Source: an uncultured Candidatus Poseidoniales archaeon (GTDB lineage Archaea > Thermoplasmatota > Poseidoniia > Poseidoniales > Thalassarchaeaceae). From it: a DNA stretch of 64,000 bases. Position 1 is the stretch's first letter, and every line of letters begins with the position of its first letter. The translations under genes were made by a program, and so were the position numbers. The notes under the pieces are model-generated. The model saw nothing but the letters and a program-made list of their open reading frames with translations, did no database searches and was not told where the DNA came from. Location of the stretch: assembly GCA_902573015.1 (NCBI GenBank), contig CACGIE010000002.1:7660-71659 (forward strand), given 5' to 3'. Below, in pieces: positions 4,749 to 46,578 of the stretch.

Positions 4749-7700
4749 CTACTCCTCAAAGAGGGCTTCGATATCCTCGGGGTCAAGATTGCTGTTTACG
4801 TCGTCAATTCTAGGTGCCGATGGGATTACTGGGGAGTCTTCCTTGGCCAATCCTAACTCGTCCAAAACTTCGTCCAAGTCGTCCAGGATTGCTGTATCTT
4901 CCCGTGGCGATTCCTCCGGCGGTGCGAACATCGCATTGGGATCTATTACAGGAGCCTCCGGTTCATCGAATGCTGCGTCGAAATCGATTTCTGATGCTTT
5001 CTTTTGCTCTTCTTGGTGGCTCTGCCTTGGGTTCCTAATCAATACCCAAGCACCTGCGGAGACTACGATCAAGGTGAAGATTATCGGGACGATATTGGAA
5101 GTCAGTTCATCTGAGAACGTCCTGGGCGCCTCTGCCACTTGGAGATCCATAGTTACAGAATGGCTAGAACTGTCATCTAGGACAGTTAATTTCGCTTTCT
5201 TGGAACCTCCCGAGTCATAGGAGAACTCGATCCACCTGCCGGTATAGTCGACATCGTTAGCGGGATCGCCATCACCGTCCGAGTCTGAGGTGATGTCGAT
5301 GTCCCAGTGGAACTCCAGTGAGTCCATATCTGCTTGAGAGTCCACGGTCCCATTGGCGGAAAGTACGATTGAATCTCCTTCAGTGGGATTTGAGACACTT
5401 GCCGAGGCGAAGGCGGCCGGAGGGGCGTTCACAACGGAGAACGAGAACTCGATTGATGCCGATTCGCCATCATCGTCTGTAACGTGGAAGATGAGGGATT
5501 CTGGGGCAGTAGTCGAGTCTGGCCATGAGTGGACGAGGAAATGCGATTCGACGTCGCAATCGTTTCCAGACTGCCCATCAGAGTCCGAGTCATCGACAGG
5601 GTTCAGGTCGAAGCAGTGAACCAGCCGCTCTGAGTCGGTTCCCGTTTCGATTATCTGCGGGGAAATAGTGAATTCCTCATCCTCTTCAAGCTGTCCCAAG
5701 GTCGTGGTGATTGGAGAAATTACAGGGGCTACGTTCTCCACTTGTATCGGCACTATCAGGACTTCAGTTGACTCACCGTCATCGTCGAATACCTGAAGGG
5801 TTGCAAGGTGCATCCCGGAGGTATTGTACGAAACCCCGGAAATAGTGCTCCTCTCGCCGTAGCTAGAGAAATTCAGATCTGGGAGGTCCTCTGCATCTGG
5901 CCTCCAGACGTGGTTTAGAGATTCGAGGTCGTTTGAGGAGTCGTCGGCCTGGCCCCAGAATGTGATTTCATCACCCTCAAGTACGATGAACACGCCTCTG
6001 CTATCGGGAAAAATCCTAGTCTCACCCAGGTATAGTTCAGCTACCGGATTGGATGGGGCTATGTTGGTCACATGAACGGAGTGCTGGGCCGTCGTGATGG
6101 CTCCGTCATCATCGATCGCCATGACTGAAACGGTCAGGTTCCCCTCGACTGTCGGAGTCAAGGTACACGATTGGCCTACTTGACCCTCCGAGCATCCTGC
6201 ATCCCACAGAATCTCTACTGGTGCAGATGGGTTCAGTGTGTCGATATCGCTGCTGTTAGTCACGAAGAAGGTGATCGGATTGGTCACAATGACTTCATCG
6301 TTGTCGGTTCCGATGGAAATCTCCGGAGGTCGATTGAGTATCGATATCGTGGACTGGGCAGTGGTCTTGTCACTCTCACCATCGGTAATTAATACCTCAA
6401 CTGAGAATGAGCCGTCGTCTGGCCAAGACCATTCCAAGATGCAGTCGTCATCTATGACCTGGAACGTTGAGCCGTCGGCTTTCTGGATGTTGAACTCGCA
6501 TTCTATTTCCCCACCATCGGAATCGTATGAGGAGGTGGCGTCAAGTGTCACCCCCTCATGGGTTTGGACTTCGCTGGGGTGAGATAGGAAGGCAAGAGGC
6601 AGTCCTCCGATATACAGGACGAAGGAGCCTTGGTTGTTGGTCCTGTTCCCATCCTCGGGTATATCCTCCTGGGGGTCAACCTCGAAGTAAAGGTACACGT
6701 TTCCGAATGGCTGGGACTCGGGGACTGTCCAGTTCACGAACACCCTAGATTCCTGCAGGCTCCCCAGAGGAGGAACTGTGCCAGATACTTCCGTACCATC
6801 AGGAGCGCTCACCACGATTGTAGAGTATGGGGACTGAATTAGTCCGCGATTTAACACGGGTACGGAGAAGGTCAGGACGTCTTCCGAGATTGCGGCAAAA
6901 CCGATACTTGAGTCGAGAGTCAGCTGATTCCCAGTGGATGGTCGGAACCTCTGGACGGTAACCGCCGATGACCTAGTGACCAAGTCAATCTCGTGAATCT
7001 CCGAGTCTATCAAAAGAGTCCTAGCTCCGATTATGCTTTCATCGCCAATCCAAGCGATTAATCCATGGCTTCCTAGCTCCCCTGGTCCATCGGTATCATC
7101 AGGATTATCCCCCGAATTGAACACTATGTGGTACGTCCCGTTTTCGTCGGTTGTCACATTCTGAAACTGTTCATCTGATTCATACCTGAATTGTATCTCT
7201 TGTCCAGATACGCCCTGTCCCTGATCAGTTACGTTAATCCAAGCGGATATCTCGATATCAGTGGGTGAGAGGGGGTACTGGACATCGATGGAAACCAACT
7301 TGCCCCTCTGGACTGGCTGATAGCTCACTAGCTCGTGTACTGCGAGGAACCCGAAAGCCTGCTCCATTGTGCTCTTCACCTCTCCTCTTACTGCTGGACA
7401 GAACCAGTTGAATCCGGTCTCCTCCCCGTCAGAGTCGTATGCTGTCACGTTGAACGACTGGTAGCACCCGGGGTAAGCAACACCAGAGTTGCCCTGGCTG
7501 ACTACAGACCAACTGGTTGAGTTGGAGTCGCTCGAGTCATCCGGTATGTCGACGTAATTGCTGGAACCGCTGTAATCAGTGGCTTGTTCGTAATCCATCC
7601 CCCAAGACTCGCCTACTGAGATCGGGAAGTCATAGTTCTCCAATGGGGGCTCATATGTGTTCTCGACGACGAGCTCACCGATATCCTGCCTCAGCCAAGC

Positions 7701-27428: not shown

Positions 27429-30400
27429 TCATGCACTTGCGACAGGCTGCTCGCCCCCTTCTTCAGCATCCCACCATGGAGATTCCCCTAGGTCATCTAA
27501 TTCATCGTCACCGTCCCATCTACCTTCGAGCACGCGATCAGTCTCATTCTCGTCTATGAAGAGTAGGAAGAAGGTGGTGACGAGGGTCAGAGCAGCGCCT
27601 ATGTAGATTGCAGATGTGTAGTTGAAGACGGATATCATCCTCTCTGTCAGTGTGTATGCGAAAACGACCGAGGTATTCAGGATGGACATGTATGCTGTGA
27701 ACTGTGTGCCTCCTACCTTGCTCCATGTTAGCCTCATACACAGAGAAATAATGCAAATAAGAGCTATTCCAGCAACGAAGTACTGGCCAATCAGATATAT
27801 TGTCATGACCAAGGTGTTCCCCCACATGGGCTCCAGGAAAGCAAAGGTGGCATTCGCTAGGGCCAGTACCAAGAAGGAGACCATCGCTACTCTGCGAATC
27901 CCAAACTTGTCTCCGAGGATGCCGCCGATTATCTGCCCTGAAACTGAGCCGAGCAAGGCGATACCGCCGACTATGCCATTGTACTTCTGTTGGGACCAGC
28001 CTGCCTCATTGATGAAGATGTCAACGTAAATCGGGCTGGTGAAGTAATACAGCTCACCGAGTAGACCTGCTATAACCAGCAGGAAGGCGGACCTGACTGA
28101 GAAGGCCTTGGTCAGATAGAATGATGTTCTTGCTACTGTTTTACTGACAGACTCTGGATCGAAACGGCCGTTTCCGGGCATATAGTTGGATATTGCGCCA
28201 ATTGGAGCAAGAATCAGCAATATCGGGTTTGGTAAGGCATCCTCGGATTGTGGTGAAATGAGCCTTGATTTCCCCGTCGAAATGACCGAAAGAAGAATCA
28301 GCGCGAGGCTGATCCTATTCGTCCCAGACCACGGCCTGAGATCAAATCCGAGGATTTGTTTTGCCTCTAGGGCCGGGAATCCTATTCTGACGTTCTTACC
28401 GAAGCCCCAGTCTACCGTGAAGACATCCATCACGAAGCCGAATAGCCAGATACAGGCTCCAGAAACTGCGAGGAAGGAGGAGATTGATACTCGCTTGTTG
28501 GCAATACTGTAGCCGACTATTCTTGCTACTCGGAACTCTTCCTCTTCCTCCCATGGAGCCTCTTCTGAGTCATCCACCACCTCTGCGATCAATGCCCCTG
28601 AGTCTGTCCTTGATTTGGGCGAGTCTGTCACATCCGTAGTTCTTGACCATGGGAACAATTGGACGCCTGGTTTCTCAACCATGAGAAGTGGCACCATTAT
28701 GATGAATGCGAGCATCACTAATTGCGCGGCTATTACTCCAGAGATTCCTATCTTGGTAATTAACACCCCCAGGACCGCCCCTCCGAAGATGATTCCAACC
28801 CTCTTTGCGGCGAACATGAGGCCGTTCACCCTAGCTACCTCATCGGGCTCGAGGACCTCAACTGCGAGAGCATCGGTTGCCACATCCTGCAGGGACGAGA
28901 ATATATTGTGGACGAATAGGATTCGGGCAACTAGGTCAATCTGCCCGTTCAAGTCCGGAACCAGAAGCAAGGAGCCGAGGGTCAGTGCCATTCCAGTTTG
29001 GGCGAATACGATCCATTGCCTTCGGGGACCGTACTTCTCGATGTAAATGGAGTCAACCAGAGGCCCCCATATCCACTTGAAGGTCCATGGGAGGGAGACT
29101 GTTGCGAACAGAATCGCTATCTCGGGAACTGAAACCCCATTTGCCACGAGATATGCTGCAAAGGTTACGCTTGCGAAACCCTGTGGCAAACCTTGGGCGA
29201 AGTAGAGTAGGCAAAGGGTTAGTACTCTCTTAATGGGGTTCTCGGTTATCGCCCCTCCCTTGCCTAGCTCAGAGATGTTTTTCGACATCCTCTCAGACCA
29301 AGACAAGGTTTCCTCTGGCTCTAGAGAAGACGCTGAATCTTCGTGATTTTCGTCGCTTTCGGAAGTCGTGGTTTGGAGCCATTCTTCCCTCCTACCGACG
29401 AACAAAACTAGGGCTATTGCTAGTAGGAAGGGTACGAAGAAGGCTATTGGACCTAGGTTGGTCAATCCCGATGAAGACGATGAGCCAGAAAATTGGACAT
29501 CGAGCAGAATAACCCTCCTAGCGTCGACTGGAGAAATGCTATCATCCGAAACTACCAGCCTTGCATAAATCGTCGAGTTTCCGGATTTTTCATGAGGGTC
29601 TAATTTTATGCTCCAAGATGACCAGTCCCCGTCCTTGGATAGATCGGCGGCTCCCGACCAAAGGCCTCCGCCTATCTTAACCTCGACCAAGCCGGTGCCT
29701 GGGGCTGCTCCACTGGAGGTTCCGGTGACATAGCTCTCGTTCCCTATTTCTTGAAGTGTGGAGACTTCCATTGAGACATTCAGGGATCTATCTATGCTCC
29801 CAGCCGCCTCGACGAAGGCAGTTGGGTCTGCCTGGCCGAAACCGAACTCGTTGTCAGGACGAGTTTCTAGTACGCTGCAGTCGTTGAATCCGGGGTCATT
29901 CAAGAGTTGGATGTCTCTCTCGATAGAGTGAGCGGAGATGATGTCCTTGAACTCTGTCGGAGTCAAATCGGGGTTCGCTTGAACCATCAGTGCAGCGATT
30001 CCAGCCATAAGTGGCGTGGCCATGCTAGTTCCTGACTTGCTCGTGTACCCATCCTGAGTCGCTGCATCGGGAGCCATGATGCTGGAACCTATCGTAGCGA
30101 CATCCGGCTTGACTCGGAAGTCCGAGGTGTACCCTCGACTACTGTAAATCGCGAGACCTAGGTCCTTGTCTAGGCTGGCCACAGTGACTGGTAGCTCTGC
30201 GTCACCTGGGCTGTCGATTGTGTTACACCCAGCAAGGGTCGCTCCACCGAATTCGTTACCCGCCGAGAGAGTAGTAATGATTCCGGCCTCAACGACCATA
30301 TCCATCTGACGGCTCCACGCGGAACTCCCGTCATTGTCGATGTGAACCTCGAACTGCTGTTCTCCCAAGGAGGAGGTGACTATGTCGATACCGTACTTGT

Positions 30401-31355
30401 CCCTGTTGTCTATGGCCCACTGGGCACCTTGCATCACATCCTCGATATCGCCATCGCAACAACCTAGGATGTTGATCAGGTAGGCTCCGGGAGCTGCACC
30501 GACATATCGTAAACCGGTTCCAGGATCTGTCTGCCCACCACCGGAACCAGCGGCAATTCCTGCGACGTGGGTACCGTGGGTGCCCGAATCATATGACGTA
30601 GAAGGGTCTTGTTCTTCATCGGTGAAAACTGCATCAAAGAAAGCGATAATCTTCGGATCGCAGTCGGAGGGGATTGGCTGTGGCTCTGGGTCCAGAGGAT
30701 CTGGCTCGGGAGGGTCATCGATACAGGTAAAGGGATCATCGTCCATATCGTTAAGGCCCTCATGGTCGCCACGAACTCCTGTATCTAGGATTGCGATTAC
30801 AGATCCAGTTCCGTCTAGTCCGAAGTCATTCCAGACTGTGTCAACAGCCATGTTGGGGACGGCTTCATGCATGTTTGTCTCAGCCAGTCCAAGATCCTCA
30901 ATCATCACAACCCCACTGAGTGATCTGATCCCATTTTCATCCAATATTGAGGACACTGGTGAGGTGGCCGAGACAGTATTGAGGTATCCGAACCTGAAAG
31001 TAACTTCGACCCCTAGTGACTCTAAGGCAGAGATATCGGCATCAGTTGGGTGGTGGTCGTAGTCTACGAAGATCCTTGCATGTTCTTCCGGAGCCCTCCT
31101 CCACCAATCCCTCTTGACTTCCTCCGGTTGCTCAATTAGCCATTCTAGTCTGTCGTCAATGGAGTTGGAATCCTTGTCTCTGCTCCAATGTGTCCACCAT
31201 TTCCAATGTATGTCTGACTCCACTGATGGGGCCCACTTTCCTTCGGCATCAAAACCGCCGTTAGGTACTTCTTCTACCCAAATAGAGGAAGACGCCATGG
31301 GAGCTATTAGGACCAATAGAGCCAGGGGCAAGAACATCGAGCGGCGTCCGGCCAT
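27429..31355 (-). CDS. fusion protein: secreted subtilisin-like S8 protease (with propeptide) + single TM + AmpG/PAT-like MFS permease
   Basis: One uninterrupted 1308-codon frame. Signal peptide. S8 catalytic triad blocks AILDTGV (Asp), HGTHVAG (His), GTSMATP (Ser). Then a TM anchor (FFVPFLLAIALVLFV), an acidic linker, and a 12-14 TM MFS with LYFAQGLPQGF...PWTFKWIWGPLVD (AmpG-like). Confidence 0.85.
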   Translation of the reverse strand: MAGRRSMFLPLALLVLIAPMASSSIWVEEVPNGGFDAEGKWAPSVESDIHWKWWTHWSRDKDSNSIDDRLEWLIEQPEEVKRDWWRRAPEEHARIFVDYDHHPTDADISALESLGVEVTFRFGYLNTVSATSPVSSILDENGIRSLSGVVMIEDLGLAETNMHEAVPNMAVDTVWNDFGLDGTGSVIAILDTGVRGDHEGLNDMDDDPFTCIDDPPEPDPLDPEPQPIPSDCDPKIIAFFDAVFTDEEQDPSTSYDSGTHGTHVAGIAAGSGGGQTDPGTGLRYVGAAPGAYLINILGCCDGDIEDVMQGAQWAIDNRDKYGIDIVTSSLGEQQFEVHIDNDGSSAWSRQMDMVVEAGIITTLSAGNEFGGATLAGCNTIDSPGDAELPVTVASLDKDLGLAIYSSRGYTSDFRVKPDVATIGSSIMAPDAATQDGYTSKSGTSMATPLMAGIAALMVQANPDLTPTEFKDIISAHSIERDIQLLNDPGFNDCSVLETRPDNEFGFGQADPTAFVEAAGSIDRSLNVSMEVSTLQEIGNESYVTGTSSGAAPGTGLVEVKIGGGLWSGAADLSKDGDWSSWSIKLDPHEKSGNSTIYARLVVSDDSISPVDARRVILLDVQFSGSSSSSGLTNLGPIAFFVPFLLAIALVLFVGRREEWLQTTTSESDENHEDSASSLEPEETLSWSERMSKNISELGKGGAITENPIKRVLTLCLLYFAQGLPQGFASVTFAAYLVANGVSVPEIAILFATVSLPWTFKWIWGPLVDSIYIEKYGPRRQWIVFAQTGMALTLGSLLLVPDLNGQIDLVARILFVHNIFSSLQDVATDALAVEVLEPDEVARVNGLMFAAKRVGIIFGGAVLGVLITKIGISGVIAAQLVMLAFIIMVPLLMVEKPGVQLFPWSRTTDVTDSPKSRTDSGALIAEVVDDSEEAPWEEEEEFRVARIVGYSIANKRVSISSFLAVSGACIWLFGFVMDVFTVDWGFGKNVRIGFPALEAKQILGFDLRPWSGTNRISLALILLSVISTGKSRLISPQSEDALPNPILLILAPIGAISNYMPGNGRFDPESVSKTVARTSFYLTKAFSVRSAFLLVIAGLLGELYYFTSPIYVDIFINEAGWSQQKYNGIVGGIALLGSVSGQIIGGILGDKFGIRRVAMVSFLVLALANATFAFLEPMWGNTLVMTIYLIGQYFVAGIALICIISLCMRLTWSKVGGTQFTAYMSILNTSVVFAYTLTERMISVFNYTSAIYIGAALTLVTTFFLLFIDENETDRVLEGRWDGDDELDDLGESPWWDAEEGGEQPVASA

Positions 31356-31401
31356 AGTTCCGCGGACAAATGGTCATGTTTGAGATTTAGGACTACAATA
31401 T

Positions 31402-32301
31402 TCATCCAATAACCTGTACTCCTTGCTCGTCGAAGTCCCAATCCAGAATTTGCCAACCCTCGTCCTCGATGTACTGAGTGGCATATTCCTTGCCAGAAGG
31501 TGAGCAAAGCAAAGCTGAGCACCCCCCTCCCCCGGCCCCTAGCGCCTTCCAAGCTACGATCGATCCTGACTCAATCAGAGGCATGACGACAGCTCGAAAC
31601 GGATCGTGAATAGTGGGGTCGATCATATCGACTCCCTCGCAGACTCCCCTCAATGAAGAAACTACCAAATCTCTCCTATCCTGTTGCAAACCTTTTGCCA
31701 TCTCTCTCGCGGAACTCCTTATCTTGTGCAAACCTTGGATTACTCCCTCGTCCCCATTTGAGTAACTGGACCATACCGATTCCTGGATTTCCCCTGAATT
31801 CCTGCTGCTTCCTGAGTAAGCAATTACCAGGTGCTTCTTCAGCCAATTCAATGAGGACTTCATCGGCTCGAAAGGCATTCTCTCTACCGAGTCTCCAATA
31901 AACAGAAGGTGATTGAAGCCGCCAACTGCAGAGGCCCAATGATCTTGCCTTCCACAGCGATTCTCTTTTGACTCTGAAAGGAATGCCTGCTCGGCTATTT
32001 CATCGAGGTTCTCTAATTGGCTTGACGAAGTTAGCGCTGCCAGTGCAACATTCATCGCTGAACTGGTTCCCAGACCGGAACCACGAGGAACTGGGAAGTC
32101 GAATTCTAAATCAGAATCTTCCACTTCCTCACGTTTCCTTACCCTAACTCTATGATTTATTGCGAAATTTACTACCTCTCCACCAAAATCTGTAGGATAG
32201 GGGGGAACATCGGTCCATCCTCCCGCCAAATCCACCCTTAATGGGGCCGAAGATTCTGTGGAGCCGCTCATAGGACAATGCGAGGGGTTCGAAGACATCA
32301 C
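31402..32301 (-). CDS. GHMP-family sugar kinase (HddA/fucokinase-like)
   Basis: LRVDLAGGWTDVPPYPTDFGGEVVNFAI matches the xRIxFxGGGTDxxxYxxxxGGxVxNxAI N-terminal signature of COG2605 kinases. GHMP ATP motif PRGSGLGTSSAMNVA. Confidence 0.6.
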   Translation of the reverse strand: MMSSNPSHCPMSGSTESSAPLRVDLAGGWTDVPPYPTDFGGEVVNFAINHRVRVRKREEVEDSDLEFDFPVPRGSGLGTSSAMNVALAALTSSSQLENLDEIAEQAFLSESKENRCGRQDHWASAVGGFNHLLFIGDSVERMPFEPMKSSLNWLKKHLVIAYSGSSRNSGEIQESVWSSYSNGDEGVIQGLHKIRSSAREMAKGLQQDRRDLVVSSLRGVCEGVDMIDPTIHDPFRAVVMPLIESGSIVAWKALGAGGGGCSALLCSPSGKEYATQYIEDEGWQILDWDFDEQGVQVIG

Positions 32302-34984: not shown

Positions 34985-35914
34985 ATGGGAGAAGATGTCA
35001 GGAGCGTAATCATTGTTGGTTCTGGCCCTGCAGGATACACTGCAGGCCTATATACGGCTAGAGCCCTGCTGGATCCATTGATGTTCGCAGGTTACATGTC
35101 CGGAGGTCAACTAATGTTAACATCAGATGTTGAGAACTTTCCCGGATACCCCAAGGGAATAGGCGGGCCCGAAATGATGATCGATATGAGGGAGCAAGCC
35201 GAAAGGTTCGGTTTGGAGGTTCATGACAAGAATGTCGAAAGAGTCGATCTTTCCGAACGACCCTTTCGGGTTTGGGTCGAAGGAGAGGAGTTCAGGGCTC
35301 ATTCACTGATTATTTGTACAGGTGCAGAAGCAATTTGGCTTGGAGCAGAAGGTGAGGAGGAGCAGAAAGGGCGCGGTATTTCCACATGTGCCACATGTGA
35401 TGGTGCTTTCTTCCGAGACGAAGAGATCATTGTTGTTGGAGGGGGTGATTCAGCGATGGAAGAGGCTACTTTCCTGACTAGGTTTGCGAGAAAGGTTACT
35501 GTCATCCACCGGAGAGATGTGTTCAAGGCGTCAAAGGTCATGTACGAAAGAGCAGAGAAGCATCCTAAAATAGAAATCAAGACATTTAGGCAAGTGAAAA
35601 AATGGATTGCAGGTGAACAAGGCCTTACTGGAGCGATACTAGAGGATCCTCGAGATGGATCGGAGGAGGAGATTAGTTGCGCTGGTGCATTTATTGCGAT
35701 AGGTCACAAACCAATTACTCAATTCTTAGGTGAACAGATTGAGACTGATTCGGAGGGATACATCGTCCACAAGGAGAATACTATGACTGAGGTTCCTGGA
35801 GTTTTCGCTGCAGGGGATGTTGTCGACAAAAGGTATCGTCAAGCGATTACAGCTGCTGGCATGGGGTGCCAAGCTGCGATTGATGCAGAAAAATGGTTGG
35901 AAGAGCAAGATTGA
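34985..35914 (+). CDS. trxB: thioredoxin-disulfide reductase
   Basis: VGSGPAGYTAGLYTARA FAD motif. CATCDG redox-active disulfide. VVGGGDSAMEEA NADPH motif. Confidence 0.9.
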   Translation: MGEDVRSVIIVGSGPAGYTAGLYTARALLDPLMFAGYMSGGQLMLTSDVENFPGYPKGIGGPEMMIDMREQAERFGLEVHDKNVERVDLSERPFRVWVEGEEFRAHSLIICTGAEAIWLGAEGEEEQKGRGISTCATCDGAFFRDEEIIVVGGGDSAMEEATFLTRFARKVTVIHRRDVFKASKVMYERAEKHPKIEIKTFRQVKKWIAGEQGLTGAILEDPRDGSEEEISCAGAFIAIGHKPITQFLGEQIETDSEGYIVHKENTMTEVPGVFAAGDVVDKRYRQAITAAGMGCQAAIDAEKWLEEQD

Positions 35915-35955
35915 CGACCGAAGGTACCTTGATTGGACCCCCTTTCACGGTGACA

Positions 35956-37059
35956 ATGTCAGGCCACCTAAGTCCGGAGCAGAGGGATAGATATGCACGA
36001 CACCTGGTCCTTCCAGGGGTTGGTTCTGAGGGGCAGGAGAAATTGCTGAAATCATCAGTTCTTGTGATAGGAGCAGGGGGCCTTGGGTCTCCAGCATTGA
36101 TGTATTTGGCCGCTGCTGGAGTGGGCAGAATAGGGATTGTTGACAATGATAAAGTCAGTTCATCGAATTTGCAGAGACAGATAATTCACAGTACTTCTTC
36201 TATCGGAAGTGCGAAAGTTAAGTCCGCATCAAATTGGATTTCTGAGTTAAATCCAGATATAGAGATAGAAGAAATTGAAGAGAAGCTAACTAGTGAAAAT
36301 TCGATTCAGATTATTTCTAAATATGACGTAGTTATTGACGGTACAGACAATTTCGAGTCACGATATCTGATTGGTGACTCATGTGAGATTCTAGGTAAAC
36401 CGTGGATTTTTGGTAGTATTCACAGATTTGAGGGGCAGGTGTCATCATTCAATTTCAAGGACGGCCCCAACTATAGGGATTTGTTTCCATCACCTCCGCC
36501 GCCAGAATTAGCGCCTAATTGCTCGGAGGCGGGAGTTCTTGGAATTCTTCCCGGAATTGTCGGAACCATCCAAGCTACTGAGGCGATCAAGATCATTCTT
36601 GGCGTTGGAAACTGTCTGTCCGGAGAATTGCTAGTAATCGATGCCTTGACCATGGATTTCAGGAAACTTGAGTTTTCTTTGAACACCGAACGAGAGAAGG
36701 TAACTTCACTCTCAAAAAAGCAAGAGAAGGGGTTTTCTGAGATAGGTGCTAAGGAATTCTCCGAAAGGAGAAATGAGGGGTGGGCCCCATTCCTACTCGA
36801 TGTTAGAAGATCCGATGAAGAGCAAATTTCCTCTATTGGGGGCACTGATTCTAGAATAATGCATCTAGAAATACCTTCCAGATTGGAAGAGTTGCCCTCG
36901 CAGGGGGATATTGTGGTTTATTGCAGAAGTGGACAGAGGTCTGATGCCGTAGCCAGGTTCATTGTGAATTCCGGATTGTGCAATGGCATAATCTACAACC
37001 TATTAGGGGGGATTAATGCCTGGTCGGACGAGGTAGATCCTACTGTTGTTAAATATTAA
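35956..37059 (+). CDS. moeB: MoeB/ThiF-type adenylyltransferase with C-terminal rhodanese domain
   Basis: LSPEQRDRYARHLVLPGVGSEGQEKL...VIGAGGLGSP is the E1-like nucleotide-binding fold. The C-terminal roughly 100 aa contains the rhodanese active-site Cys (IVVYCRSGQRS). Confidence 0.85.
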   Translation: MSGHLSPEQRDRYARHLVLPGVGSEGQEKLLKSSVLVIGAGGLGSPALMYLAAAGVGRIGIVDNDKVSSSNLQRQIIHSTSSIGSAKVKSASNWISELNPDIEIEEIEEKLTSENSIQIISKYDVVIDGTDNFESRYLIGDSCEILGKPWIFGSIHRFEGQVSSFNFKDGPNYRDLFPSPPPPELAPNCSEAGVLGILPGIVGTIQATEAIKIILGVGNCLSGELLVIDALTMDFRKLEFSLNTEREKVTSLSKKQEKGFSEIGAKEFSERRNEGWAPFLLDVRRSDEEQISSIGGTDSRIMHLEIPSRLEELPSQGDIVVYCRSGQRSDAVARFIVNSGLCNGIIYNLLGGINAWSDEVDPTVVKY

Positions 37060-37232
37060 TGTGGTATATATTATCACAATATGTCTTTTTATTGTGGTAA
37101 TTAATCATAAATATGGTTTAATTTTTTATTTTTTCAATATATGTGGTAAATATAAACTTAATATATCTTTTAATTGTGGTAAAAGTTCTACTCATAATTG
37201 TTTAATACCACATAATATAACTAATTGTGGTA
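37059..37232. repeat. AT-rich (about 20% GC) intergenic array of TGTGGTA(A) iteron-like repeats
   Basis: Direct copies of the core TGTGGTA at 37060, 37093, 37142, 37175 and 37225, plus an inverted copy TACCACA at 37205. Spacings alternate 33 and 49-50 bp, giving a pair period of about 82 bp. The last pair forms TACCACA-N13-TGTGGTA. Confidence 0.7.
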
Positions 37233-37289
37233 AAATGTGAAAATCTTGGCCAATATTGTTGTACTAGGCTCATTCGTGATTCAAACAAT

Positions 37290-40154
37290 ATGGCGAGAGT
37301 TGGAATTTGGAAGTGTCCAGAATGCCAACTTCACCAAACCTGGAAGACTAGGTCAGATAAGTCAAACAAATTGGATCGTAAGTGTACAGGATGTGGGAAA
37401 AGGGTTCGAACGACCCTAGATAGGTCTGTCTCAGGGAAGGGCAGAGTGCGGAACGTCGAAATTTGGGAAAGGAGTTCTAAGGATTGGGAATCTCTGGAAG
37501 AAGAGGTTCAGAGAAGGAATAGGGGGTCTTTTGCAGATCCCATCGCATCAGTTAGTGGGAATGAAAATGAGGAACTGCAGTCTAATATTCCAAAAATTTG
37601 GGGCGTAGGGTGGATTCCTCCGGATGCATTGATTTTTCCATCAAAGCTGAAGTCAAAAAGAGCCAAGAAGAGTTTGCTAGAATTTGTAGCAGAAAGACAC
37701 GATGGTCATCTAAATTCTATTTCAGAATGTTGGGATTCAATGAAATGTAAAGATAAAATGACGGGTGAAGAGTTTCATGAATTCTCTCAGGAATTGATGA
37801 GAGTAATCGAGGAAAGATACCTAGAAAGGACGTTGGGTCCCGATCTATCTGGGCTTGCAAAATCAGAAATCATACCGATGAGAAGGGGTGAAGTATTCCT
37901 AAAGAGGAGATTGGACAGGCTACTAATTGATCTGACACTTTGCATGAGAAGAATTGCACATTATGCTTCGATTACTGTGGAAAATAGAATAGAATGGCAG
38001 AGGAGAATGATTCGTACAAGATTAGTGGATGAGGAGTTGAAGGACCTCTTTACGAATGGATTGCCTACCCCAGATGGAGGTAGTTTTGGTGGAAAGGGTT
38101 TCAGATCAACCTGGCAGGAAGGGGTGGTTGCCTGCGCTACTGCTATGACACGCGCAGTTGATTTGCCGGAAGAAAACCGTCACAATGCAGACATTGTAGC
38201 CCCAATGATCAGAGATATGGGCCTAGCACTTGCAATGGGGCAGACCCCGATCGAGGTTTTTTCTGCCCAAATGGGCAAGGCAGAGTCCTACATGGACGGT
38301 GGAATTCAAGGAAGTGGCGGTAGGGATTTGCATATAGGGAACTGGGAGAAGGGAATCCTGCCTCCTACTGCACCATTGCCTATTGCAAGTGCAACAACCA
38401 CTGGAGTAGCACTGGCTGCAAGTAGGCTAGGAATTAGTAGATTCCACTTAGCCCCTGTGGGAGAGGGTTGTAGCAGTAGCGGAGAGTTCTGGGAGGCGAT
38501 GAATTTCGCTGGAGTTCGTGGTTTGCCGATTTGCTTCATGATTCAGAATAATCAGATAGCACTTGATACACTAAATTCTGCTCAATCAGGAGCAGAGACT
38601 TTCGGTGACAAGGGGCATGCAATGGGAATCCCCGCCTGGACTATAGATGGATCTGATCCAGCGTTATTCTATGTATCCACTGCGGTTGCTAAGGAGTTCG
38701 CCAAGGATGGATGCGGAGCAACGCTAATCCACGTGGAAACAATGAGGGGTTGTGGGCACGCTCATCATCATGATGATTTGTACCTTGGAGCATCAAGCGG
38801 AAACCCTCCAGGTTATGTTGATCGGGAGTTACTGCGATACTGGTCCGAGAAAGATCCTCTGCCAAACCATAGAGAGTTATTGATTAAACTCGGAGTGGGC
38901 GAACAAAAACTCAACCGCATTCAGCTGGAAGAAGAAGGCAATGTGGAGTCAGCCAGGAGTCAATTGGAAAAAATGGAGTGGCCGGAGGGGAATTCGGTTG
39001 TCAAAGGAGTTACATCAATCTCGGACGCTACAAGTCACGAGAAGCAACTACGGAGAATTGACGAGGCAGGGGATATTACGAGTACCGGTCTAGGTTCAGG
39101 GGAGCTCTCAATAGAGTTCTCCGATGCTCCAAATTCTTGGAGTTACAGTAGAGCAATTCAGAATGGCATGGCAGCACTTGCAGACCAATTCGGCGATCAG
39201 ATGGTGTTCATGGGCGAAGATATGGAAGTAGCAGGGGCATTCGGAATGAATCTAGGGCTCAAGGCTAAGGGTCATCAATCAAAACTTCTCGATATGCCAC
39301 TATCTGAGGCCATCATAATCCATTCAGCGACAGGCGCAGCCCTAGGAGGGATGAGGCCACTGGCAGAGATACAGTTCGGAGGATTTGCAGCACTAGCAAT
39401 GAACCCCCTGGTCAACAATGCGGCTCAATTGAGATGGAGATGGGGCGCAGAGGTACCGATGACAGTACGAATTCCCCTAGGAGCTAAGACCAGGAGTGGG
39501 CCATTTCACGCTAACATGATTGAATCATGGCTAACAAACGATCCAGGATTGATCATTGTAACTCCAAGTAATCCTCAGGATGCTTATGATCTGCTTATTG
39601 AGTCACACCATCTACCAGATCCTGTTGTCTACTTAGAGCATATTGGGCTGTACGGACTTAGAGGGGGCATAACTGGCTGGGGTAAATCAATCAATCAAAT
39701 AGTGGATACAGAGGCTGTAATGAATAGACTAGGAAATGGAGATAGTTCAATTGGCAGAGCCAGAGTAGTCAGAGGAGGCGAGGATCTCACAATTGTCACC
39801 TGGGGTGCCATGGTACACGTTGCGCTTGATGCAGCAGAGAATGTGTCGAATAGGGGGGTTGAAGTCGAAGTTGTGGATCTGAGAACTCTCGTTCCCTTTG
39901 ACTCTGGGACATGTATCAACTCGGTTCTCAAGACTGGAAGACTAATCGTTCTACAAGAGTCGCAGTGGACTGGTGGTTTTGGCCATACAGTCTCGAGCAG
40001 AATTATCGAAGAGTCGTTCTGGAAGTTAGAAACTCCTCCCGTAGTGATTGGAGCGTTGGATACACCTGTTCCTTTCTCTCCAACACTTGAGGACCATACT
40101 ATTCCAAGTGTCGAAGTGGTTTCCAGGCATATCGAAAGAGCATGTGCAAAATGA
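37290..40154 (+). CDS. fused 2-oxoacid dehydrogenase E1 component (alpha+beta, TPP-dependent) with an unusual N-terminal C4 zinc-ribbon extension
   Basis: Frame is open from GTG 37226, with the first ATG at 37290 (MARVGIWKCPECQ...CTGCGKR). After about 230 aa comes E1-alpha (TPP motif GEGCSSSGEFWEAMNFA). Then E1-beta (transketolase-like Pyr and C-terminal domains) runs to 40154. Confidence 0.85.
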   Translation: MARVGIWKCPECQLHQTWKTRSDKSNKLDRKCTGCGKRVRTTLDRSVSGKGRVRNVEIWERSSKDWESLEEEVQRRNRGSFADPIASVSGNENEELQSNIPKIWGVGWIPPDALIFPSKLKSKRAKKSLLEFVAERHDGHLNSISECWDSMKCKDKMTGEEFHEFSQELMRVIEERYLERTLGPDLSGLAKSEIIPMRRGEVFLKRRLDRLLIDLTLCMRRIAHYASITVENRIEWQRRMIRTRLVDEELKDLFTNGLPTPDGGSFGGKGFRSTWQEGVVACATAMTRAVDLPEENRHNADIVAPMIRDMGLALAMGQTPIEVFSAQMGKAESYMDGGIQGSGGRDLHIGNWEKGILPPTAPLPIASATTTGVALAASRLGISRFHLAPVGEGCSSSGEFWEAMNFAGVRGLPICFMIQNNQIALDTLNSAQSGAETFGDKGHAMGIPAWTIDGSDPALFYVSTAVAKEFAKDGCGATLIHVETMRGCGHAHHHDDLYLGASSGNPPGYVDRELLRYWSEKDPLPNHRELLIKLGVGEQKLNRIQLEEEGNVESARSQLEKMEWPEGNSVVKGVTSISDATSHEKQLRRIDEAGDITSTGLGSGELSIEFSDAPNSWSYSRAIQNGMAALADQFGDQMVFMGEDMEVAGAFGMNLGLKAKGHQSKLLDMPLSEAIIIHSATGAALGGMRPLAEIQFGGFAALAMNPLVNNAAQLRWRWGAEVPMTVRIPLGAKTRSGPFHANMIESWLTNDPGLIIVTPSNPQDAYDLLIESHHLPDPVVYLEHIGLYGLRGGITGWGKSINQIVDTEAVMNRLGNGDSSIGRARVVRGGEDLTIVTWGAMVHVALDAAENVSNRGVEVEVVDLRTLVPFDSGTCINSVLKTGRLIVLQESQWTGGFGHTVSSRIIEESFWKLETPPVVIGALDTPVPFSPTLEDHTIPSVEVVSRHIERACAK

Positions 40155-41203: not shown

Positions 41204-41773
41204 GTGGAATGCGTAATTCTTGCGGCTGGTTCAAGCAGTAGGCTTGGAATGGATAAGGCATTGGTTGATGTCGGTTCTCAGACGCTCATCAGTTGGATTT
41301 CACGAAGATTATCGAGTCATGTGGCTAATATCACCATAGTTGCAAATGAGTCAAATTTTACAGAAATTTCCAAAATGGTGAGTAATGTGAATGTAATACT
41401 AAACCGAAATCCGCACAAAGGTAGAACAGGCTCTCTTAAATTGGGAATTGACAGTATTGATTCCTCGGGAGTGGAGGATTACAGATTGCTTGTTGTTCCC
41501 GTAGATCGGCCAGGATTCTCAGATTCGACTCTGGATCGACTAATTTCTTCAGAAGAGACCTGCTGTCCTATGAAGGAAGGCAGAGGGGGACACCCCCTGG
41601 TGCTGACCTTCGAAGATGTCGACAAGGTAAGGAAAAGTTCAGCAAATTCGCCATTGAGAGAAGTGATCGAGGCAAGTAGATTCGAGGTTCTAGATAGATT
41701 TCTAGATCTAAACATAGATACCCCAGAGGATATAATCAATCTACAACATAAACTAAGATCGGTAAATGAATAG
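41204..41773 (+). CDS. MobA/MocA-like molybdenum cofactor nucleotidyltransferase
   Basis: CVILAAGSSSRLGMDKALV is the MobA-family N-terminal motif. 189 aa, GTG start. Confidence 0.7.
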   Translation: MECVILAAGSSSRLGMDKALVDVGSQTLISWISRRLSSHVANITIVANESNFTEISKMVSNVNVILNRNPHKGRTGSLKLGIDSIDSSGVEDYRLLVVPVDRPGFSDSTLDRLISSEETCCPMKEGRGGHPLVLTFEDVDKVRKSSANSPLREVIEASRFEVLDRFLDLNIDTPEDIINLQHKLRSVNE

Positions 41774-43171: not shown

Positions 43172-44032
43172 TTGGCACCCCGACGGACCTTTGTGACTGT
43201 GGCAGTCCTAAACTGGGCCATCAATAGAGTAGAGGCTGGAGAAAGAGTCGCCATTGCATCTGTGGTTCAGGCCAGCGGGAGCGTTCCTGGGAAACCAGGA
43301 GCAAGGCTAGCAATCAGCTCCTCGGGGGAAAAGTTCGGGACTATCGGTGGTGCAGGATTGGAGTTAACGGTGGAAAAGGAGCTTCAAGAAATTCTTTTGC
43401 GAGATCTGTCTGACCTAAGAAAAAAAGGAGGTAAAGTTGAGTTATTCCTGCTAAACAGAGATGGCAAAGGAAAAGAGGTATCTGCCCTCGACAGTCTATG
43501 CGGGGGACGGGTGACAGTAGCTATGGAAGTGATTACTCCACGACCTCACATCTTGATTGCGGGAGGGGGGCACGTTGGTCTTTCAATCGCAAAGGTGTGT
43601 GATTCTGTGGAATGGTCGTATAGCGTATTCGATATAAGAGAGGAGTATTGTAACCAACAGCGTTATCCAAACGCTGAGAGGAATTTCTGCTCGTCTGTCG
43701 AGGAATTTCTCAAGAGCGAAAGTAAGGATTCTCTGGCTCGTTTTTCAGATATTCTACTGTTGAGTCATGATTGGTCGGTTGATGAAGAGATGCTAATCGG
43801 GTTACTGCAATTATGCAGAGAAGGAAGTAGGCCTCGGATTGGGGCTATAGGATCGAAGAAGAAATGGTCTGCTTTCAGGAAGAAGGCTATTGGAAGTGGG
43901 GTTGAGGAGCGGCTGATAGACTCCGTCAGATGCCCTATTGGCCTAGACATAGGGGCGGATACTCCGGAAGAAATTGCAATTGCGGTTTGTGCAGAAGTTC
44001 TATCTCTTGAAAGGAAGAACGTGGCTACCTAA
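43172..44032 (+). CDS. XdhC/CoxI-family molybdoenzyme maturation factor
   Basis: N-terminal XdhC_CoxI-like block VAIASVVQASGSVPGKPGARLAI...GTIGGAGLE. C-terminal Rossmann-like ILIAGGGHVGLSIAKV. Confidence 0.7.
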   Translation: MAPRRTFVTVAVLNWAINRVEAGERVAIASVVQASGSVPGKPGARLAISSSGEKFGTIGGAGLELTVEKELQEILLRDLSDLRKKGGKVELFLLNRDGKGKEVSALDSLCGGRVTVAMEVITPRPHILIAGGGHVGLSIAKVCDSVEWSYSVFDIREEYCNQQRYPNAERNFCSSVEEFLKSESKDSLARFSDILLLSHDWSVDEEMLIGLLQLCREGSRPRIGAIGSKKKWSAFRKKAIGSGVEERLIDSVRCPIGLDIGADTPEEIAIAVCAEVLSLERKNVAT

Positions 44033-45314: not shown

Positions 45315-45959
45315 ATGAGGAAGGTACTCCTTAGATGGAAGGTTTCCTCTCTTTCCGGAATAGATGAGATCGACAAACTGATGGAGATTTGTCACAGGAT
45401 AGAGGTTCTTGGACACCTTTCTACTGATTCTGGAGGGGTTACCCAACTGGTAGAATTGGGGATTAACAAAGGACGGTATCTATCTGAAATCTCGGATTTG
45501 GAGAGTTTTGATGTTATTGAAACACATGAAGAGGACGGGAGCGGCGTGTTGGTTAGCATTCGTTGCACTCATCCTCTAGCACTTTCTGCGTTAGAGTTGT
45601 CGAATATCTATGTCTACCCCCCATACGGAATCGATTCCAAGAGCGGCCTGGAGTTCAGAATCTTTGGGATTTCAAGATCCATACGGAGTTTCTTGGAGTT
45701 TGTTAGAGAAGTGATGCCACCGGACACAATTAGTGTACAGACAATAAAAAACGGATCTTCTAAGGAGCTCGATTTCCTGACAGAAAAGCAGAGAGAAGTG
45801 CTTGAACTGGCTGTGAACAGAGGTTACTACGAAGATGGAGCGGAGATAACATTGAAGCAACTCGCTGAAGAGCTAGGAATAGCAAGAAGCACCACAGGAG
45901 AGCATCTGAAGAGGGCCGAGTCTGAAGTTCTAAAAAGAGCCATCAATGATTTCCAATAG
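45315..45959 (+). CDS. HTH_10 (bacterio-opsin activator-type) transcriptional regulator
   Basis: C-terminal LTEKQREVLELAVNRGYYEDGAEITLKQLAEELGIARSTTGEHLKRAESEVL is the archaeal HTH_10 signature. Located immediately upstream of the molybdoenzyme operon. Confidence 0.7.
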   Translation: MRKVLLRWKVSSLSGIDEIDKLMEICHRIEVLGHLSTDSGGVTQLVELGINKGRYLSEISDLESFDVIETHEEDGSGVLVSIRCTHPLALSALELSNIYVYPPYGIDSKSGLEFRIFGISRSIRSFLEFVREVMPPDTISVQTIKNGSSKELDFLTEKQREVLELAVNRGYYEDGAEITLKQLAEELGIARSTTGEHLKRAESEVLKRAINDFQ

Positions 45960-45987
45960 ACATCAAGGGGAACCGAATGCTCAAAGG

Positions 45988-46578
45988 ATGGGCTCGATTG
46001 GTCGTAATGTGGTGCAGTTCCGGCTACCTATGCTACCCCCTTCCGATGCGATTGAGTGGAACGCCAAGGTAAATGACGAAGAAGTATCCATATTTATTGA
46101 GAGCAATGCGATTCTTCTTGACGTGCTTAGGGACCGTGTCGGGAGTCTGGGAACCAAGCGTGGATGCGATATGGGCACCTGTGGATGCTGTTCTGTACTA
46201 ATTGACGGGGAGCCGAGGTTGTCTTGTCTTACTCTAGCTGTAGATACTGAACAAGCCGATATCACAACAGTAGAAGGATTAGCTGATGGACACCATCTGC
46301 ACCCGATACAGCAGACCTTCGCGGAGTGTGGAGGCAGTCAATGCGGATTCTGCACCCCTGGTTTCTTGGTGGTAATTTCTGCATTACTATCTGAAAATAC
46401 CAAACCTGACGACCAAGAGATAAAACAAGCAATAGAGGGCAACCTATGTCGTTGTACTGGATTCCAGCAGATAGTTGACTCAGTCAAAGCCGCTTCAGAT
46501 ATCCTAGTCTCGGGGGAAGCGGTTAGCGACTCGACCCTATCAAAGAGTGATCCTCATCCAGGATTTGGTGGAGATTAG
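45988..46578 (+). CDS. xanthine dehydrogenase-family [2Fe-2S] small subunit (CoxS/XdhA-like)
   Basis: GCDMGTCGCCSVLIDGEPRLSC (plant-type 2Fe-2S). CGFCTPGF...CRCTGF (second 2Fe-2S). Confidence 0.85.
   Translation: MGSIGRNVVQFRLPMLPPSDAIEWNAKVNDEEVSIFIESNAILLDVLRDRVGSLGTKRGCDMGTCGCCSVLIDGEPRLSCLTLAVDTEQADITTVEGLADGHHLHPIQQTFAECGGSQCGFCTPGFLVVISALLSENTKPDDQEIKQAIEGNLCRCTGFQQIVDSVKAASDILVSGEAVSDSTLSKSDPHPGFGGD

Follow-up and report, generated by a model that had tools for sequence, protein, structure and literature searches.

A phased array of TGTGGTA boxes upstream of a zinc-ribbon–E1 fusion gene in Marine Group II archaea: candidate operators of a possibly self-regulating 2-oxoacid dehydrogenase

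Introduction

Phased arrays of the Lrp type are exemplified by Escherichia coli Lrp at ilvIH and pap, by archaeal Ss-LrpB and FL11, and by Pseudomonas putida BkdR at the branched-chain keto-acid dehydrogenase operon. The archaeal viral regulator F55 of SSV1 acts on tandem direct repeats in its own early promoters, and in Methanocaldococcus the sites of Ptr2 lie upstream of the B recognition element (BRE) and the TATA box (BRE/TATA). Fusions of an enzyme with a regulator are an established class, archaea included: PutA (ribbon–helix–helix [RHH] domain plus proline dehydrogenase), BirA, NadR and archaeal RbkR (a wHTH domain [winged helix–turn–helix] plus riboflavin kinase) are such ‘trigger enzymes’ (PMC5397151). 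Here we analyse a phased array of TGTGGTA boxes located between moeB and a gene for a zinc ribbon fused to the E1 component of a 2-oxoacid dehydrogenase (hereafter E1), found in a 64,000-nucleotide stretch (‘the window’) of contig CACGIE010000002.1 from an uncultured Candidatus Poseidoniales archaeon. To our knowledge, no such regulator fusion is known for a thiamine pyrophosphate (TPP)-dependent 2-oxoacid dehydrogenase E1.

Marine Group II (MGII) archaea, the Poseidoniales, are among the most abundant planktonic archaea, and none has been cultured. Our full-text literature search for Poseidoniales together with ‘promoter’ and ‘transcription factor’ found no paper. Poseidoniales pyruvate dehydrogenase (PDH) subunit transcripts are reported, from a metatranscriptome, to change in dark incubations, which shows only that such genes are regulated, not how (PMC9723583). 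Our favoured reading of the locus, to which we assign a probability of about 0.5, is that the boxes form an operator array bound by the zinc ribbon, that this module was captured from a mobile element, and that E1 is a self-regulating trigger enzyme.

Results

Layout of the array

The upstream neighbour of the array, moeB (35893–37059, + strand), encodes a MoeB/ThiF-type adenylyltransferase with a rhodanese domain, for which an exact look-up in public assemblies found no record. The gap between its stop codon and the E1 ATG spans 230 bp and contains six TGTGGTA boxes, five direct and one inverted, within 173 bp of ~20% GC. As judged by GC fraction, this gap is the sole AT island among the intergenic gaps of the window (0.23 versus 0.32–0.57), with values of 0.16–0.22 per 100 nt as compared to ~0.45–0.5 around it. 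TGTGGTA occurs eight times in the entire window, and the two copies outside the gap are stray. In 20,000 dinucleotide-preserving shuffles of the 230-bp gap, 7-mers with at least three G/C reached a maximum of four copies, as compared to the six observed.

The start-to-start distances of the direct boxes are 33, 49, 33 and 51 bp, with the pairs repeating every 82–84 bp. Box A-left (37060–37066, +) starts one base past the moeB stop, and box A-right (37093–37099, +), with CTTTTTAT just before it, follows 33 bp later. Together they delimit unit A (37059–37100, +), a 42-nt module made up of a box, N11, an AATAT/AGTAT centre, a T-run and a second box. The module is repeated at 83% identity (repeat family D1) as unit B (37141–37182, +), in which box B-left (37142–37148, +) and box B-right (37175–37181, +) are again 33 bp apart. 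Further downstream are the inverted box (37206–37212, − strand; TACCACA on the + strand) and the promoter-proximal box, TAAT-TGTGGTA-AAA (37226–37232, +). Three oligo-T runs are also seen in the sequence (+ strand), a T5 at 37086–37090 and two T6 at 37122–37127 and 37129–37134. Since oligo-T serves archaeal RNA polymerase as a terminator, these runs are likely moeB transcription terminators and barriers to read-through; a bacterial promoter and terminator scan is uninformative for an archaeon.

An earlier note on this stretch, made from the letters alone, had reported five direct copies of a repeat. This count holds for the core TGTGGTA, which is what the copies have in common; the 9-mer TTGTGGTAA is exact only three times. 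The inverted pair TACCACA-N13-TGTGGTA at the 3' side of the array is present as described there. As a further detail, TTATCACAAT (37071–37080) is a one-mismatch inverted box; with box A-right it makes up a near-palindrome, ATTATCACAATA-N8-TATTGTGGTAAT, that is seen only in the close relatives of the window.

Start codon and candidate core promoter

The E1 gene starts at ATG 37290, as judged by the N-terminus M-x-R-x-G-I-W-K-C-P, conserved across the 30 lineages compared. The mechanical start of the open reading frame (ORF), GTG 37227, falls inside the last box, and it was this mis-called codon that had made the last box appear to overlap the translation start; the box is located 58–64 nt upstream of ATG 37290, and the gap is 230 bp long as compared to the 170 bp given earlier. 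Automated annotation may over-extend the E1 gene by 21 codons (37227–37289).

The best-conserved block of the gap is CCAATA-TTGTTGTA-CTA (37250–37266, +). Across lineages it reads (C/G)CGAATA-TTGTTGTA-CTA, beginning 28 nt before the ATG in most lineages and 34–35 nt before it in the subclade of the window. The octamer TTGTTGTA itself (37256–37263) is near-invariant, and we used it as the anchor for comparing loci. The stretch between this core element and the ATG is poorly conserved and carries indels that are not multiples of three, and is therefore non-coding. We infer that CGAATA-TTGTTGTA, the sequence of which is not a canonical TATA, acts as a core promoter of the BRE/TATA-like kind, for an mRNA with a short leader or none. 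The element contains TGTTGTA (37257–37263), a one-mismatch box 31–33 bp past the proximal box; given this unit spacing, the promoter region itself is a third unit (unit C), of which the promoter-proximal box is the left half.

The presence of a box-like sequence within the candidate promoter is also what would be expected if the units were tandem, virus-type promoter copies, read by TATA-binding protein (TBP) and transcription factor B (TFB) or by a dedicated paralogue, and providing several starts or a strong promoter with no dedicated regulator. Besides the third unit ending in promoter-like TTGTTGTA, units A and B have a TATA-like TTTTAAT stretch just before the right box, and the box pairs of the mobile-element-like contigs described below are located immediately upstream of an AT-rich, TATA-like stretch. 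However, TBP is poorly served by boxes containing GTGG. Throughout the lineages, GTGG is retained in the right box of both unit A and unit B, and GTTG at the promoter position; these positions are therefore under different constraints. Furthermore, units A and B are followed by neither a gene nor conserved sequence, their spacers vary, and the oligo-T runs would end any transcripts begun there. Finally, neither TTGTTGTA nor TGTGGTA is a feature of other promoters within the window. We consider tandem promoter copies improbable.

One partial relative of the core element is located elsewhere in the window: GAATATTGTAGTCCTA (31388–31403, −), 33–48 nt upstream of the ATG of an ORF of 1308 amino acids (aa; 27429–31355), by eye a protease joined to a transporter-like region. 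Since GAATATTGTAGTCCTA resembles the E1 core element CAATATTGTTGTACTA, ATATTGT(T/A)GT may be a promoter type of this organism.

Conservation across related genomes

A scan of one genome per species yielded 80 syntenic loci. In 52 of these, all with an E1 that aligns from residue 1–3, an AT island with TGTGGTA-type boxes is located upstream of E1. Island and boxes are missing in the other 28 loci (Marine Group IIb and IIa, MGIIb and MGIIa), the E1 of which aligns from residue 58 at the earliest (mostly ~97) and starts with ‘M.Q..LP.IWG’, without a zinc ribbon. The zinc ribbon is thus conserved in all array-bearing lineages and the array is found in every lineage with a zinc-ribbon E1, over genomes that span 36–58% GC and with E1 identity down to 65%.

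We anchored 50 box-bearing Thalassarchaeaceae loci and the window on TTGTTGTA (51 sequences). In most lineages the boxes lie at −32, −92, −125, −175 and −208 from the anchor, and in the subclade of the window at −30, −81, −114, −163 and −196. With the box pattern used, 47 of the 51 sequences have a proximal box between −30 and −32, and the other four have relaxed forms in its place (TAAGGTA, TAGGGTA, TGTGGCA). Unit B is kept in all lineages, one-unit ones included, with B-right at −81 here and −92 in most lineages, and B-left at −114 and −125, respectively. The second pair (−175/−208, or −163/−196 in the window’s subclade) is limited to two-unit lineages, in which A-left is located at −196 to −209; the inverted box, at −50/−51, is found in a subset of lineages only.

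The within-pair distance is 33 bp in the 50 related loci, with isolated cases of 32 or 34 bp, and the unit consensus across species reads TAAT-TGTGGTA-N11-(A/T)AGTAT-N4-TTTTAAT-TGTGGTA. When the 21 two-unit sequences are aligned, the boxes and the central and T-rich elements are conserved, and the spacers vary in sequence, not in length. Between subclades the spacer lengths differ by 11–13 bp, approximately one helical turn. A higher-GC clade (L039, L046, L068 and L075) preserves the same geometry with the variant boxes AGTGGTG and TGTGGTT. Read from sequence comparison, this pattern is characteristic of DNA that binds protein and is stereospecifically constrained. The earlier claim of a phased array in the AT-rich gap is therefore borne out by box count, shuffles and 50 related loci, and that of regulator binding upstream of E1 is strongly supported, the positions and spacings being conserved in 50 species and the spacer sequence not. 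We regard it as very probable that the array is a protein-binding regulatory array of the E1 promoter.

The same comparison bears on two explanations that require no regulator. The AT-richness of the region and the seemingly foreign origin of the zinc-ribbon module might suggest that the array arose by chance, or through faulty assembly of low-complexity sequence, or that it is what an insertion left behind, without function. This is refuted by conservation: the architecture recurs in ~50 independent assemblies of metagenome-assembled and single-amplified genomes and in 76 metagenome contigs among the matches listed, the boxes are conserved as the spacers diverge, and no shuffle reached the observed count. 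Of the integration scar that had been suggested, what survives is the loose resemblance of the array and the zinc-ribbon segment to a mobile-element module; the array is maintained by selection and is not a scar. A replication origin, partition site or plasmid-type iteron array, also proposed earlier, would account for an AT-rich island with repeated short boxes, yet this idea is close to refuted. The array is flanked by moeB and E1, and neither orc1/cdc6 nor a rep or par gene was found among the scanned neighbours. Cumulative GC skew rises monotonically over 32–56 kb and tracks gene orientation, without switching at 37 kb. The array is missing from MGIIb and MGIIa sister lineages that have the same neighbourhood, and where it is present its distance to the start codon of E1 is fixed.

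The zinc ribbon and its stand-alone homologues

The proposed regulated gene (37290–40154, +) encodes a protein of 954 aa in which zinc ribbon, linker and E1 alpha/beta are held in a single open frame, a fusion kept in the 52 loci. The proposed box-binding domain is a basic Cys4 zinc ribbon (residues 1–80, CPEC...CTGC; coding region 37290–37529, +); it is strongly basic and is joined to E1 by a variable acidic linker. The Pfam domains E1_dh, Transket_pyr and Transketolase_C are found from residue 298 onward, and the NCBIfam PDH E1 alpha/beta matches of the protein are all below the curated cut-offs. The protein is 92–97% identical to Red Sea and other Candidatus Poseidoniales (MGII) proteins, the named relatives in the records being Thalassarchaeaceae (MGIIb). 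In a few assemblies (L017 5288–5375, L047 ~5312–5344 and P0010) the reading frame is broken between zinc ribbon and E1. Such breaks are due to faulty assembly or else represent natural variants, with the gene split or turned into a pseudogene; if real, these would yield a free zinc-ribbon protein.

AlphaFold models the zinc-ribbon domain as five strands and a helix (pLDDT 72). Pfam and PHROGs return only sub-threshold generic zinc-ribbon matches for the domain and its homologues, a word-indexed protein search with the zinc ribbon finds only fragments of the same E1, and fold searches do not name it a DNA binder, the nearest weak structural matches being ribosomal protein eS27 and aRF1. Zinc ribbons frequently bind RNA, and such matches could be taken to mean that the functional sites are UGUGGUA sequences in the E1 5' leader, in the 3' end of the moeB mRNA or in a small RNA, with the zinc ribbon possibly the binder. 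The one inverted box pair could in principle form a hairpin. However, in the related loci compared, changes on one arm of this pair are uncompensated on the other, which means that the pair is conserved as sequence and not as a hairpin, and it is missing in many lineages. There is no Rfam match at the gathering score or at E up to 1, the several T5–T6 runs would halt archaeal RNA polymerase, and spacing kept in helical-turn units is a property of DNA. An RNA role is thus highly improbable.

An exhaustive HMMER profile search of 1.84 billion representatives returned 50 proteins, ~20 of which are stand-alone proteins of 86–176 aa with the whole domain present, in most pairs 36–44% identical to the window’s domain over ~75 aa. 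Their contigs are densely packed with small genes that match no family, show local synteny that is conserved, encode DNA methylases and gave one match to a tail protein; they look like unclassified viruses or mobile elements; a tblastn search of the domain and a homologue against GenBank phages gave no match, and likewise an IMG/VR scan gave none. Of seven non-redundant elements, four have two GAAT[AT][GA]TGG[GCT]G boxes, 36–39 bp apart, upstream of the operon. L323, L331 and L333 carry them at approximately −80/−43 relative to the ATG, and L326 at −194/−158 relative to its called start. The pair directly precedes the zinc-ribbon gene itself in L331 and L333, and a repeat finder returned it as the top direct repeat in all three regions given to it (L326, L331 and L333). 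The density of AAT[AT][GA]TGG is 5.5 per kb in the upstream regions as compared to 0.10 per kb in the rest of the contigs. The element boxes evidently share a core with the E1 boxes (TAAT-TGTGG-TA); the last two positions differ, as does the protein. In L326 we also noted an uncalled mini-ORF of ~45 codons with two CxxC pairs (~1667–1800), 24 nt past the second box and before the zinc-ribbon gene.

It is mainly because the pairing of box and zinc ribbon recurs in this second, unrelated setting that we tie the boxes to the zinc ribbon and not to another factor. On balance we lean towards the zinc ribbon as the binder of the boxes, its DNA binding being predicted from this co-occurrence.

Uniqueness of the unit

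A looser 14-base two-box pattern, applied to viral contigs, was drowned by chance matches, and for this reason we scanned metagenomes with the stricter unit pattern TGTGGTA-N20-TTTWWW-TGTGGTA, obtaining at least 120 matches. Of the 120 listed, 76 are the moeB–E1 locus of MGIIb, and the other 44 are unrelated: 33-bp satellites, organisms of 29% GC, other repeat families and two bacterial-type contigs. In the window and among the metagenome matches listed, the two-box unit is therefore dedicated to the E1 promoter and is not a dispersed regulon motif, which is the outcome of the frequency check that the earlier note had proposed. The satellites, 33-bp tandem repeats with TTTTAATGTGGTA in unrelated contigs (L203, L258, L279 and L282), explain part of the non-E1 matches. 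Two further candidates, L207 (4260–4370) and L230 (1740–1810), each have four TGTGGTA boxes in an AT island, but were rejected since their neighbours are non-MGII and of bacterial type; these boxes may reflect convergence or chance. In L230 the boxes lie ~70–130 nt upstream of what is by sequence an AraC-type regulator gene, and L207 carries an M16 peptidase and a sugar kinase. A text search of the literature for the motif returned primer lists only.

The main rival to binding by the zinc ribbon is an unlinked host factor of the Lrp/AsnC, TrmB, HTH_10 or response-regulator type, with the zinc ribbon serving a different purpose, for instance to bind RNA, to dock a protein or to help assemble the dehydrogenase complex. 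Conservation and phasing indicate protein binding and name no protein. A 33-bp, three-turn spacing is typical of Lrp-type wrapping, and the spacing seen here fits it. The fold searches that do not mark the zinc ribbon as a DNA binder, and the single origin of zinc ribbon and array inside MGII, likewise leave room for such a factor. However, the boxes are asymmetric direct repeats and not the palindromes of Lrp or TrmB dimers, in 50 genomes no gene for a regulator keeps synteny with the array over ±5 kb, and none of the 27 window proteins scanned has an Lrp/AsnC domain. As the unit is found nowhere else in the window or among the metagenome matches listed, an unlinked factor would have a single target. 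Nor does a host factor explain why the same type of box is found upstream of stand-alone zinc-ribbon genes in unrelated, mobile-element-like contigs. We consider it unlikely, if clearly the strongest of the alternatives.

Both regulators suggested in the earlier note belong here. The Lrp/AsnC- or TrmB-like factor finds no support in the asymmetric direct repeats, and no such gene is linked to the array. The nearby HTH_10 gene (45315–45959) is 8 kb away, and it overlaps the [2Fe-2S] subunit gene (45946–46578) at the start of a xanthine-/CO-dehydrogenase-like operon, downstream of the genes for a MobA-like protein (41204–41773) and XdhC (43172–44032); given this overlap, the likely target of HTH_10 is that operon.

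Neighbouring genes

The scanned neighbours of the array (~2.5 kb upstream and 7 kb downstream) include genes for GYD, thioredoxin-reductase-like, Na/Ca exchanger, MobA-like and XdhC proteins, and a scan for tRNA genes as an integration target found none. In MGII without the zinc ribbon, a receiver-domain-like gene of ~330 aa is located between moeB and E1 (L052 3141–4927, L063 3973–4950 and L071 3107–4941). It is followed in L052 and L071 by a gene for a ~250-aa DedA/SNARE-associated-like membrane protein, L063 having only the first gene; both genes are absent from the 64-kb window. In L049, L051, L054–L056, L058, L061, L062 and L064, a conserved stretch A-R-R-x-x-P-V-S-F-V-C-x-T-x-V-E-x-F-G-G is encoded ~90 nt upstream of the E1 ATG, in frame with E1 and without an ATG of its own. 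It may act as a conserved leader or in regulation, or else mark a non-canonical start. We had suspected a vestige of the zinc ribbon in lineages that lack the domain; none is detectable in the upstream in-frame stretch.

Discussion

We propose that the moeB–E1 gap is a control region of E1, composed of three tandem ~40-bp modules, each with two (A/T)GTGGTA boxes 33 bp, or about three turns, apart, the downstream half-site of the last module, TGTTGTA, coinciding with the BRE/TATA-like core promoter. The boxes would be operators for the basic Cys4 zinc ribbon tethered to the N-terminus of E1 by a flexible acidic linker. At 33 bp, paired boxes would face nearly the same side of the helix, and the left boxes of successive units would be ~8 turns apart. 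Occupancy of the proximal unit would hinder TBP and TFB, resulting in negative autoregulation; as the promoter-proximal unit overlaps the core promoter, repression is likelier than activation. The upstream units may raise local occupancy and add cooperativity. On the analogy of PutA, BirA, NadR and archaeal RbkR, a metabolite might also exert control by way of the E1 domain. Zinc ribbon and operator pair were probably acquired jointly from a virus- or mobile-element-like self-regulated operon, with the operator unit duplicated later. Binding by the zinc ribbon, the choice of promoter, the sign of the regulation and a possible role for a metabolite are all our interpretation.

Several points weigh against this reading. 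The array-bearing clade is monophyletic inside MGII, and the link between zinc ribbon and array is therefore one evolutionary event there. In the mobile-element-like contigs the association with the boxes is clear in four of seven elements, the other three having only degenerate versions; the sample is small, and the motif pattern was set after two elements had been seen. Physical linkage alone can also make a promoter travel with the gene next to it. The box offsets from the ATG also differ, −63/−30 at the E1 locus and −80/−43 in most elements. Finally, direct repeats are unusual for the two-fold symmetric E1 dimer.

A more far-reaching version of the proposal, which we put forward tentatively and at somewhat less than even odds, is that an MGIIb clade domesticated a virus or mobile-element module consisting of an autoregulatory zinc-ribbon protein and its paired operator, fused it to E1 and amplified the operator. 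This would make the protein the first E1 ‘trigger enzyme’ and would define a new zinc-ribbon family whose members bind DNA sequence-specifically, at AAT(A/T)GTGG boxes three to four helical turns apart.

The locus offers a testable protein–DNA pair, a 95-residue domain and a 230-bp fragment, and a candidate core promoter for MGII. If the zinc ribbon does bind the boxes, enzyme–regulator fusions would gain a central enzyme of carbon or amino-acid catabolism, an uncharacterised zinc-ribbon family would become a defined DNA-binding family, and a mobile-element regulatory module would have been captured by a core metabolic gene and kept across a radiation of 36–58% GC. If another protein is the binder, the array would still be among the clearest phylogenetic footprints of a dedicated single-gene regulator in the lineage.

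How, then, does the array compare with known systems? It shares with plasmid iterons and archaeal origin recognition boxes (ORBs) the direct repeats in an AT-rich island. However, its boxes are 7–11 bp long and 33–51 bp apart as compared to contiguous repeats of 17–22 bp, and no initiator gene accompanies it; it keeps its place with respect to a start codon, and sister lineages lack it. The inverted ORBs of archaeal oriC were not seen, five of the six boxes having the same orientation and the units being direct repeats (no formal ORB consensus scan was made). As with upstream activating sequences of the Ptr2 type, the sites closely precede a BRE/TATA-like element, in a gene that is probably leaderless. 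Unlike these sequences, the last half-site coincides with the TATA-like element, favouring repression, and the array is much longer (170 bp, 5–7 sites).

The resemblance to Lrp/AsnC arrays is in geometry: an AT-rich region preceding a 2-oxoacid dehydrogenase gene contains several sites spaced by about three turns, which implies cooperative, helix-face-dependent binding. While Lrp sites are imperfect palindromes of 13–15 bp bound by dimers, those described here are asymmetric direct repeats of 7–11 bp, with no linked Lrp gene and with a co-occurring zinc-ribbon domain. With viral and plasmid regulators such as SSV1 F55, it is the stand-alone homologues that invite comparison, being small, basic and encoded in ORFan-dense contigs, with a direct-repeat pair just upstream of their own operon. 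They differ in having a zinc ribbon instead of an RHH domain and in residing in elements that match no described virus searched; the window’s module is, moreover, chromosomal and fused to a host enzyme.

The closest parallel is with the trigger enzymes. Here, too, a small domain of nucleic-acid-binding type is fused N-terminally to a metabolic enzyme, and candidate operators are located before the enzyme’s own gene, with tandem sites suggesting cooperativity. The differences concern each part of the system: the domain is a Cys4 zinc ribbon without a Pfam family, as opposed to RHH or wHTH; the operators are direct repeats 33 bp apart, as opposed to adjacent palindromes; and the enzyme, whose DNA binding is predicted, is the TPP-dependent E1 component of a 2-oxoacid dehydrogenase. 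The locus has the fusion that defines the trigger-enzyme class, and the array upstream of it is a putative operator cognate to the fused domain.

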